A stretch of DNA of 64,000 bases from a virus (lineage: Duplodnaviria > Heunggongvirae > Uroviricota > Caudoviricetes), in the IMG/VR virus record IMGVR_UViG_2718218100_000001. One strand, written 5' to 3'. The position numbers were made by a program. How positions within the stretch are numbered: the stretch's first letter is position 1; each line of letters begins with the position of its first letter. Below are positions 51,001 through 54,000 of this stretch, one piece after another.

Positions 51001-54000
51001 GTTTGTACTTTCGCAGCCAGGCCGTTGAAGCCATTTCTCATATCGGTGATACCGGCAACCAGCCAAATTTTGGTCCCGGAAGGTAACGGGATCATCGCTT
51101 CAGTTCCTGTATCAGCAGAGTCAGGAGCTTTTCGCTGACATTGCCATTGAAGCGGAGCGTCCCGTGCCGGAACGTTACCTCACAGCTGATACTGAGGGTT
51201 TCCGGGTCCTCTGCGAGCGATTCTGGCTGTTCGGCAGCTGCATCGAGAGTCACAGGAAGTAGCTGGGGGCTCTCTGAAGAAGGTAATAGCAGCTTTCCCT
51301 CGCGCCATTGTTGTCGCCATTTGAACAACAGATTGGCGTTAATGCCATTTTCAAGAGCAAGTTTTGAGATGGATATCCCGGGTTCACAGGAGGCAGCAAC
51401 GAGCTGCTGTTTAAATTCGGGAGGATAATTAGGGCAGCCTTTTCGCCTGCCGGGAGTCACATTTTTCTGCATATCTGATACTTTGGTTCCCACTACTTAT
51501 TTGGTGGACACCACTTTGTCTAATTCGTCAGATTCTGACCAGACGGTTCAGGATGTACGCTTACATTTATAACAGAAATAACGTTAATGTTACGGGCGTG
51601 CTGACTCCAGTATTTTTCCTGGACAGATTTACAGCGGAGTCTGGCTCAAAGACGTACACTAATAAACCCGACGGGAAATCATTGCAGGCTGTATGTTGTT
51701 TATTTCCCTGGAATAATGTATTTGCGGATCGGAAAGTACCGAAGATAACCATTAATGACAATACGGTGACGTGGTCGAATCTTGAGCAGGGTATGGGATC
51801 TTATATTTATACATTCTGGGGATAAGTGTTATGTACGGTTTGAGCATTATGAAGCCGGATGGCAGCGTATGGATAAGTCCAGGTTTTACGCCGCAGTGTC
51901 TGATCAACAAAGGCACCATACCGGCGACTGAAAAGTCTTTTTTTAAAACATCAATCCCGTCAGGCAAAAGTTGTTTTTTCTTTATCAGAACAGAGAAGAA
52001 GGCCGATGTCATGTACACGCATGAACAGATTGATGGATATCATGCACTAAGGCTTCATGTAATTGCCAGGGGAACGAACCCTGGTGTTACGACGGTTTAT
52101 GCTTTCGCGAATATGGTTACTCCACCTTCTGAGTATGGTATCGCCATGTATAACCCGGACGGTGAGATGATTTATCATGGCGAAATGATGCTGCTTGACG
52201 CGAAGTTAATACCTGTTGATATCAAATTTGAAAAGGACCTTGGATATCCATGCGCAATCATGCCTGCACTGGTCGGGTATTATAACTGGAAAAGAACTCC
52301 TTATGATCGACCGATTTATACCACATCCACTGGTGCTACAGGAAATAAAATATATTCCTGTGAGCATTATTCCGGTGGTGCAACATGGGATATTCGAAAG
52401 CCGTATATAGATAAGGTCCTGGTTATTAATACATCAGTATATGATTAGTTGAAGCGAGTCTTTAATATTCATTTAAAATGTCTAAAAAGATGTATTATTA
52501 AAAAGTTTAGCGTGTTATCTGAAAACAGGATATCTTAAATGAAGAGTATAGCAACACTGGTTGTGTGTGCAATCTCCGGGATTGCCTGTGTAAATTTATC
52601 TGCACATGCAGCAGAAGGAGAGCATACAATTTCTCTGGGGTATGCGCACTTTCAGTTTCCGGGACTGAAGGATTTTGTAAAGGATGCGACTGCTCATAAC
52701 AGGGAGACTTTCAGTCATTTCATCAACAGAAACTACTTTTCTTCATTGGGCGAATATACAGATGGTCGGGTCAGTGGATATGAAGGCAAGGATAAAAATC
52801 CACAGGGCATTAATATCAGGTATCGCTACGAGATAACGGATGATTTTGGCGTTATCACCTCTTTTACATGGACGCGTTCTCTCACTAACTCACAGACATT
52901 TATTGATGTGCAGTCAGCCGATCATAGCAGGAAGATTAAGAATCCGGCAGCTTCTGCCGGAACGGATATCAGGGCGAATTACTGGAGTCTGTTAGCGGGG
53001 CCTTCATGGCGGGTTAATCAGTACATGAGTTTATATGCGATGGCAGGGATGGGCGTTGCTAAAGTTAGCGCTGACCTGAAAATTAAGGACAATATTAACA
53101 GTAGTGGCGGATTTTCTGAAAGCAACAGCACGAAAAAAACCTCCCTTGCGTGGGCTGCAGGTGCACAGTTTAACCTGAATGAGAGTGTTACACTGGATGT
53201 GGCTTACGAAGGTTCCGGCTCTGGCGACTGGCGCACGAGTGGCGTTACTGCTGGCATTGGCCTGAAATTCTGACCTGTATCCGGTAACCGTTTACTACCC
53301 GCTGTGATGGCGGGTTTTTTATTGCCCGTACAGGGCAAAAACCGTAAATTATGCGTGGGTGCCTTTCGGCTGATGGCTGGAGGGTGAACCTGAAGGCCTG
53401 ATGTGGAAAGGCCCCGAGTCAACTTAACGTTAACCCGAGGCCCTAACACTTCGTACCTTAAGCAAGTAGAAGGTTAGCGCCTCTCTGTAAAAGGAGTCAA
53501 GCGCTATGTCGCAAAAATCGCTTATCACCGTCACAATTTGCATGACGGTTATCTTCACCATCTGGATGTTGCACGGTTCACTGTGTGAGTTCCGGCTGAA
53601 TTTGTGGGGAGCGGAGTTTGCGGCGTTCTTACAGTGTAAGCAGTAGGAAAACCGCGACGGGGACGAGAGTCCCCGTCAACTGGTTGCTGAGGTTCAGCCG
53701 ATATGGCACCCGTTTCAGGTGAGAGAATGAACGATAAAATTCTCTGGTATATGCAGCGTGTTGTGAGAAATTCCCGCAACCCTGAATTTATGAATGAAGT
53801 TAAAGACGCCTGCCTTAAAAAGCAGGCGTTTTGTTTTGAGGCACCTGATGGCTTTTTGGTGCTGCGTTCTGTGCTCAGTGCTGATGGTATCCCTTATGTT
53901 CTGGTGTTGCTGGGCGTGTGTACGGGGAGTAACAGCGTTGAGCGTTACCTGCCGGAGGTGAAGACATTAACCCATCTGGCTGGCGGACGCTGGGCTGAGT

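Follow-up and report, generated by a model that had tools for sequence, protein, structure and literature searches.

A candidate receptor-recognition gene pair, a lom allele and a hok cassette without mok behind the tail genes of a 933W/Sp5-type Shiga toxin prophage

The DNA considered here, referred to as the window, is a stretch of 64,000 nucleotides from the IMG/VR virus record IMGVR_UViG_2718218100_000001. Behind its tail genes lie three open reading frames (ORFs) on the plus strand: one of 205 amino acids (aa) at 51831-52448, one of 244 aa at 52539-53273 (lom) and one of 46 aa at 53506-53646 (a hok-family toxin gene). All three were present where an earlier reading of the DNA by itself (the sequence-only reading) had placed them. 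That reading had taken them together as one cluster of morons, a grouping that was not confirmed, as a homologue of the 205-aa protein occurs in a virulent phage. The interval probably holds three functionally separate things, namely a receptor module, lom, and a hok/sok-type cassette.

The host of this interval is a 933W/Sp5-type (Traversvirus) Shiga toxin (Stx) prophage. Across 51564-54200 the window matches several E. coli O157 chromosomes and the Stx1-converting phages AU5Stx1 and AU6Stx1 with 100% identity, and 933W, VT2-Sakai (Sp5) and many further short-tailed Stx phages with 99.8%. Public records label the 244-aa product ‘Ail/Lom family outer membrane beta-barrel protein’, the 205-aa product ‘hypothetical’ or ‘membrane associated’ protein, and the product of a 92-aa gene just upstream ‘outer membrane protein’; the 46-aa ORF is RefSeq WP_000078907.1, ‘Hok/Gef family protein’, and is labelled ‘MokW-like host killing’ elsewhere. 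The lom and Hok/Gef genes of 933W-type Stx phages are known already through this annotation. With both genes annotated publicly and the toxicity of the peptide tested, the finding of lom and hok as first put forward adds little; the points of interest left are a Hok subfamily that lacks mok, a second hok locus, and a probable receptor-binding ORF disrupted by an insertion sequence (IS).

The membership of the 46-aa protein (MSQKSLITVTICMTVIFTIWMLHGSLCEFRLNLWGAEFAAFLQCKQ) in the Hok/Gef family, as proposed in the sequence-only reading, was upheld by the profile PF01848 HOK_GEF (33.2 bits against a cut-off of 22, E 4e-8) and by PHROG 251 (E 2.8e-24). The NCBIfam equivalog model for HokA, NF007290, gave a score well short of its cut-off (38.4 bits, cut-off 89), and Escalera-Maurer et al. 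assign HokA to cluster 93 and the 46-aa peptide to cluster 72 (bioRxiv 10.1101/2025.08.07.668861). Seven residues in the family logo of that study are conserved in more than 80% of sequences (M1, C16, T18, L30, C31, E32 and E41), and all seven are present in the 46-aa peptide as M1, C12, T14, L26, C27, E28 and E37. The peptide itself is identical to 72_1589 in Table S2 of the same study, where it stands for a ‘high-abundance cluster’ and where its toxicity was tested from the clone pAZ3::72_1589, with an arabinose promoter. Altogether 42 of the 45 Hok homologues proved toxic, and 72_1589 is not among the three named as non-toxic (19_179, 60_1482 and 69_1540; bioRxiv 10.1101/2025.08.07.668861). 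The experiment suggested in the sequence-only reading, induction of the 46-aa ORF followed by a test for killing, has thus in effect been done with the identical peptide. The authors state that mok, sok and mRNA structure lay outside their analysis (bioRxiv 10.1101/2025.08.07.668861), and the regulatory anatomy described below is therefore additional to it.

The relatives of the cassette comprised 75 distinct copies from E. coli genomes, phage records and IMG/VR; a scan of one genome per species, which returned three loci, two of them in implausible hosts, was not used. The hok ORF is intact in every one of the 75 and 46 aa long in 73, and 19 distinct peptides are encoded, with amino-acid divergence of up to ~40% and a median ratio of non-synonymous to synonymous substitution rates (dN/dS) of 0.24. 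Because the ORF is always intact and the median dN/dS is this low, hok is under purifying selection. In the window, a strong Shine-Dalgarno (SD) sequence, AAGGAG (53491-53496), precedes its AUG by 9 nt.

The predicted body of the hok mRNA spans 53357-53712 on the plus strand. It would be transcribed from a putative weak promoter at 53322-53350 (-35 TTGCCC at 53322-53327, a 17-nt spacer and -10 TAAATT at 53345-53350, with a predicted +1 at 53357), which was read by eye and whose -10 region is conserved in the alignment as TAnATT. Both promoters of the cassette, this one and the antisense promoter below, were read by homology and conservation only. The minimum free energy (MFE) fold of 53357-53716 has a z of -6.9 against shuffled sequences. 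In this fold, as in the consensus of 70 distinct sequences, the 5′ end at 53357-53371 (GGGUGCC..CGGCUGA) folds back on 53696-53711 (UCAGCCG..GGCACCC), the same 5′-3′ arrangement as in the hok mRNA of R1; variation in this pairing across the 70 sequences is one-sided only (GC/GU and UA/UG). The consensus fold also keeps leader hairpins at 53374-53399 and 53404-53445, a long-range helix between 53457-53469 and 53680-53692 with compensatory AU/GC changes at 53468/53681 and 53469/53680, a hairpin at 53476-53486/53493-53505 that buries the SD, a pairing of the AUG region with 53617-53626, and a 3′ hairpin at 53656-53677 that likewise shows compensatory changes. The leader is more conserved than the hok coding sequence, and the Rfam model RF01794 (‘sok’, built on the hok-mRNA leader strand) aligns with it over its full length at 53357-53519 (E 1.5e-5).

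On the minus strand of this leader lies a predicted sok-like antisense gene (53403-53500), for which the features of the sequence and their conservation argue. Its promoter consists of a -35 TTGACT (53500-53495), an 18-nt spacer and a -10 TAACCT (53476-53471), with a start near 53464; the -10 is invariant in all 75 cassettes, each of which also has a -35 of the form TTGnnY at a spacing of 17-18 nt. The predicted RNA of ~60 nt has a single-stranded 5′ tail and a 16-bp hairpin (z = -5.65) and ends in UUUCC near 53405. This layout parallels that of R1 sok, with a promoter (TTGCGC/TATCCT) at the homologous place. The sequence-only reading had pointed to 53330-53510 as the place to look for a mok frame and a sok antisense promoter. 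The second part stood, in that a sok-type promoter and hairpin are readable and conserved there; the first did not, since a search in all frames found no ORF that starts upstream and overlaps hok.

What remains at the place of mok is a vestigial leader ORF at 53401-53427 (plus strand; an ATG, seven codons and a stop). In some relatives a mok-like frame of 61-79 codons starts at the position of ATG 53401, and this ATG is conserved; its frame enters hok in the register of R1 mok in only 15 of the 75 cassettes. Counting any frame that overlaps hok raises the number to 28, leaving 47 with none. Where R1 has its mok start, all relatives read GAGGCCCUAAC, and no start codon is present. Either mok is dispensable in this Hok subfamily or most copies are crippled, and the sequence comparison favours the former, because everything else in the cassette is strongly conserved. 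The likeness to R1 hok/sok is otherwise extensive. It takes in the C..T...LCE...E pattern of the small membrane toxin, the length and structure of the leader, the 5′-3′ fold-back, and a predicted antisense promoter between the leader and the hok start, for an RNA that would have a single-stranded 5′ tail followed by a hairpin. The differences are the missing mok frame, a toxin of 46 rather than 52 aa, the absence of an obvious terminator after the fold-back element, and an Rfam score below the gathering threshold.

Several of these points weigh against a cassette that works in the manner of hok/sok. Without mok the R1 mechanism is not transferable as it stands; the RF01794 score is 35.6 bits, under the gathering score of 59; and a generic sigma-70 consensus scan gave no promoter in the hok leader, sense or antisense, leaving the antisense site, with its weak -10 TAACCT, uncalled. 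The cassette might accordingly be read as a decaying relic, like several hok loci on the E. coli K-12 chromosome, in which hok is never translated for want of mok. The missing frame, the low Rfam score and the erratic lengths of the leader ORF among relatives all fit such decay. A relic, however, would hardly keep its toxin ORF intact in every copy, at constant length and with a dN/dS of 0.24, through ~40% amino-acid divergence, nor would its leader, fold-back and antisense promoter be expected to outlast the coding sequence in conservation. The compensatory base-pair changes, the strong SD 9 nt before the AUG, and the toxicity of the tested peptide, which is not among the three non-toxic homologues, also speak against decay, which we regard as very unlikely. 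The widespread 46-aa Hok subfamily of cluster 72 could matter as a test case for mok-independent control, in which toxin, mRNA fold and predicted antisense promoter are kept by selection and mok is mostly missing; here the antisense RNA may target a leader segment 30-100 nt upstream of the hok SD, where it would lock the structure or block a standby site rather than a coupled upstream ORF.

Under such mok-independent control, the weak promoter would give a stable hok mRNA, silenced by the fold-back, by the SD hairpin and by pairing of the AUG with the distal coding region. A short-lived antisense RNA, from a promoter predicted to overlap the hok SD, would pair with the leader at ~53405-53466 and destroy or lock mRNA that had become activated. 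Antisense synthesis could be stopped by loss of the element, by the shut-off of transcription by an infecting lytic phage, or by late read-through after induction colliding with the antisense promoter, as late transcription would pass through the cassette in the sense direction, beyond the lom terminator at 53297-53315. The unstable antisense RNA would then decay, and the 3′-processed mRNA would refold, allowing Hok to be translated from its own SD, with no mok coupling, unlike R1. Hok would enter the inner membrane, depolarise it and kill the cell.

Two observations concern the DNA around the 3′ end of the hok transcript. The gene after hok contains, at 53806-53838, a GC-rich hairpin that has T-runs on either strand and resembles a terminator whichever way it is read; it has weak Rfam matches to BSnc120 and GlmZ, and the transcript that ends there could be that of hok or one converging on it. 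That gene is annotated as a 133-aa ORF (53703-54104), whose ATG falls inside the hok fold-back element. PHROG 610 aligns with it from residue 9 only, an AGGTGA SD goes with a second ATG at 53727, and a 125-aa version is annotated in one phage record; judging from these features, the start is probably at 53727.

Homology between cassettes starts near 53337 and stops at 53711, i.e., at both fold-back elements, defining a unit of ~375 bp. The same unit recurs in varied surroundings: P2-like prophages have it at their ends, behind ogr, a lambdoid prophage has it between J and stf, an O157 island has it beside urease genes, and a plasmid carries it too. The hok cassette is a portable module. Two IMG/VR contigs (L031, at 4353-5099, and L099) carry two cassettes ~720 bp apart with differing leader lengths, a tandem duplication of the module. 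Exact matches to the hok leader motif also turned up in an 857-bp contig of Xanthomonas pisi (L135) and in Vagococcus sp. (L136), probably through contamination and not transfer.

The hok next to lom and hokW-sokW of Sp5 share their phage type, their toxin family and the ‘MokW-like’ annotation in phage records, but identity of the two was ruled out. Neither the hokW-sokW primers nor the HokW sequence have a match in the window, and hokW maps elsewhere, ~12 kb off at the right end of Sp5 and in the opposite orientation (AP000422.1 59818-59970, VT2-Sakai). HokW also differs in length, with 51 aa (MKQQKAM...DYESEK) against 46 for the Hok beside lom. Sp5-type phages thus carry two hok loci, of which only hokW has been studied as a locus; our literature search found no locus-level experiments on the cassette adjacent to lom. 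This matters for the reading of published single deletions of hokW, which left a paralogous toxin in place because of the second locus.

The hokW work also bears on what the cassette may do. Takada et al. (2021, PMC8621323) found that sokW RNA vanished after mitomycin C and that HokW then appeared in a RecA-dependent manner; phage release was roughly halved without the locus, which is reported to aid lysis on induction. By this precedent, the cassette beside lom might also help lysis after induction, with Q-antiterminated late transcription titrating or occluding the antisense RNA and Hok weakening the membrane before holin and endolysin act, and its sense orientation within the late operon, directly after the lom terminator, would suit that role. 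The same cassette is nevertheless also met on a plasmid, in an island and at the ends of prophages, places that late transcription does not reach, and a part in lysis is possible but rather doubtful. Its presence in such sites suggests a selfish or defensive role that is independent of context. The claim in the sequence-only reading that an addiction module stabilises the prophage is plausible but was not borne out, the only locus studied, hokW, having been reported to aid lysis.

Between the cassette and the 205-aa gene lies lom (52539-53273, plus strand), coding for an outer-membrane beta-barrel protein of the Ail/Lom/OmpX family with a signal peptide. Its membership in the Lom/Ail family, also claimed in the sequence-only reading, holds: PF06316 Ail_Lom matches with 114.5 bits (cut-off 23), over residues 88-244 only, and lambda Lom (PDB 9wso_C, E 3.5e-24) and Ail (3qra) match as well. 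The protein resembles lambda Lom, Yersinia Ail and OmpX in the barrel body up to the C-terminal ...GIGLKF, in its signal peptide and in its position after the tail genes. It differs from lambda Lom, to which it is ~36% identical over residues 89-244, in being ~40 residues longer at the N-terminus, outside the profile match. A hairpin (53297-53315) followed by a T-run, resembling an intrinsic terminator, stands after the gene on the same strand (53297-53321). By analogy with these relatives, lom can be regarded as a gene for an eight-stranded Ail/Lom barrel with its own terminator, and as a true lysogenic-conversion gene; a virulence role for its product, such as in adhesion or serum resistance, is assumed from the family. 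The 244-aa gene is an ordinary, long-annotated allele of lom.

The remaining ORF, a candidate gene for a receptor-binding, tail-tip-associated protein, encodes an all-beta protein of 205 aa (51831-52448, plus strand). The sequence-only reading had called its family unknown; this stands insofar as neither it nor the 92-aa protein has a match in Pfam, NCBIfam or PADLOC, and falls insofar as a close homologue was found. The family is small, with 21 matches in a word-indexed search and 108 representatives in a full search with a hidden Markov model (HMM), and a match to DUF6453 appeared in one distant relative at 22.5 bits, below the cut-off of 25. The close homologue is bas06_0024, a 204-aa protein of phage KarlJaspers (Bas06), with 42% identity over 202 of 205 columns and an hhalign probability of 100%. 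Its neighbour bas06_0025 (91 aa) is 54% identical to the intact 92-aa protein. Both lie beside the J-like gene of KarlJaspers together with bas06_0026 (L213, 4455-4724), a lipoprotein of 89 aa beginning MKKLIAVLIAAVALTGC... and a candidate superinfection-exclusion protein.

KarlJaspers is a virulent, T1-like member of the Drexlerviridae with BtuB as its terminal receptor, and in small siphoviruses the locus beside gpJ tracks receptor specificity (Maffei et al., PMC8594841; bioRxiv 10.64898/2026.04.02.716166). The latter study counts as family members proteins with >30% identity at near-full coverage, and by that measure the 205-aa ORF belongs with bas06_0024. The gene pair adjoins a J-like tail-tip gene in the window, in 933W-type phages, in the lambdoid contigs L186 and L209 and in KarlJaspers; in one lambdoid prophage it stands after gpJ and before lom and stf. 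Fused relatives of ~315 aa are known, one of them directly 3′ of a tail fibre gene in Pantoea phage Vid5. The notion that the 92-aa protein is one module of the 205-aa protein was rejected, its support being weak, with a 14-residue motif and an hhalign match of 39% probability to the N-terminus of the fused forms.

In the window the J-like gene (47814-49082, plus strand) encodes a 422-aa tail-tip fibre protein that matches PF09327 Phage_Tail_Tip and aligns with the C-terminal third of lambdoid and T1-like J proteins up to a common end motif, ...VYDQNGRLAVRIGRL. The general form of this C-terminal motif, xVxDxNGxLxVxxGR(L/I), is common to the 422-aa protein (49031-49079), the lambdoid J of L186 and the J of KarlJaspers (L213). 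A strand motif of the type Y-N/D-x-x-G, resembling the J ending, recurs at the start of the 92-aa protein and in both halves of the 205-aa protein. The J-end motif and its likeness in the two smaller proteins may represent a shared docking element. In our interpretation the 92- and 205-aa proteins would attach to the J-like tail-tip protein at its C-terminus and recognise a host protein in the outer membrane.

The sequence-only reading had counted the 205-aa gene among the morons. Extended to its partner, such a reading would make all three genes of the interval morons, with the 205- and 92-aa proteins serving as a factor expressed in the host, for superinfection exclusion or surface modification, and not as part of the virion. 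The pair does sit where morons are classically found, between J and lom/stf, its PHROGs category is ‘moron, auxiliary metabolic gene and host takeover’, and a Foldseek search with the 205-aa protein gave no significant PDB match. In L209 and KarlJaspers, moreover, the pair is transcribed towards J, so that it must there be an independent unit with a promoter of its own; around the 205-aa ORF of the window, a promoter and terminator scan called none of either. Against this, strictly virulent T1-like phages, which have no use for lysogeny genes, carry close homologues, and a role as lysogeny cargo is therefore unlikely for the 205-aa ORF. Neither protein has a signal peptide recognisable by eye, and KarlJaspers has a separate lipoprotein gene that suits an exclusion role. 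The predicted model of the 205-aa protein resembles a solved receptor-binding protein (RBP), and receptor choice correlates with the gpJ-adjacent locus. The closest known systems are the ‘bona fide RBP’ loci beside gpJ of small siphoviruses, among them that of KarlJaspers and that of Oekolampad, whose RBP has been solved in complex with LptDE (PDB 9RPT). In the window, finally, the 92- and 205-aa genes are 6 bp apart and the former starts 14 bp past the tail-tip gene, with no terminator between. Taken together, these points make the moron interpretation of all three genes unlikely. For the 92- and 205-aa pair we lean, with some reserve, towards a receptor-recognition module and not lysogeny cargo, on the strength of gene order and homology.

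A receptor-recognition module also has evidence to contend with, beyond the inverted orientation of the pair in two relatives. The published receptors of short-tailed Stx phages are YaeT/BamA, FadL and LamB; BtuB is not known to be one of them, and a literature search returned nothing specific on BtuB as a receptor of Stx phages. A counterpart of the exclusion lipoprotein was not seen beside the gene pair of the Stx phages, where lom comes next. In addition, it could not be verified which of the Bas06 proteins is the one named as RBP in bioRxiv 10.64898/2026.04.02.716166. The comparison with the BtuB-type locus of KarlJaspers thus rests on a homologous pair beside a J-like gene with the same C-terminal motif, and it differs in that the window belongs to a short-tailed temperate Stx phage, in which the pair is co-oriented with the J-like gene and no such lipoprotein accompanies it. 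The 92- and 205-aa proteins could set the terminal receptor of 933W/Sp5-type phages, which might be BtuB or a re-targeted relative and might replace or supplement the published receptors. If so, the module would offer a handle on the host choice of Shiga-toxin phages, and hence on the spread of stx. Two propositions, that a two-gene module homologous to the BtuB-type module of virulent T1-like phages sets the receptor of these Stx phages, and that the Hok subfamily of cluster 72 works without mok, are put forward tentatively, the odds being against them.

In the prophage studied here the putative receptor module is broken by an IS66-family element of 2442 bp (49123-51564, minus strand), which separates the tail-tip fibre gene from the remainder of the late region. 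Its three transposase ORFs (133, 115 and 512 aa) match the Pfam families HTH_Tnp_1, TnpB_IS66 and DDE_Tnp_IS66; terminal inverted repeats are present, and an 8-bp target duplication, ATTTATAA, flanks the element on both sides (span 49115-51572), its left copy at 49115-49122 within the stump of the 92-aa gene. Judged by E. coli O157 644-PT8, in which the gene is uninterrupted, the 5′ stump covers 49097-49122 on the plus strand (a TTG start and ~8 codons), and the 3′ remainder, which belongs to PHROG 557, covers 51565-51825 on the same strand. An ATG at 51553, within the end of the IS, opens an altered ORF of 90 aa (MYAYIYNRNN...). The element is missing from Stx phages that are otherwise 100% identical, and their match to the window starts at 51564 because the IS occupies 49123-51564. 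Since the insertion splits the 92-aa gene, the receptor module, and perhaps the infectivity of the phage, may be impaired; if the pair is indeed a receptor-binding module, the prophage that bears the IS is possibly unable to yield infectious particles.

Elsewhere in the window, Rfam and ARAGORN gave three matches above threshold. A tRNA-Arg(CCT) at 7467-7541 on the minus strand, beside a 414-aa ORF, probably marks the attachment site of the prophage. The small RNA STnc100 was found at 28175-28388 on the plus strand (195 bits), and a match to the lambda cIII thermoregulator lies at 13804-13862 on the minus strand.

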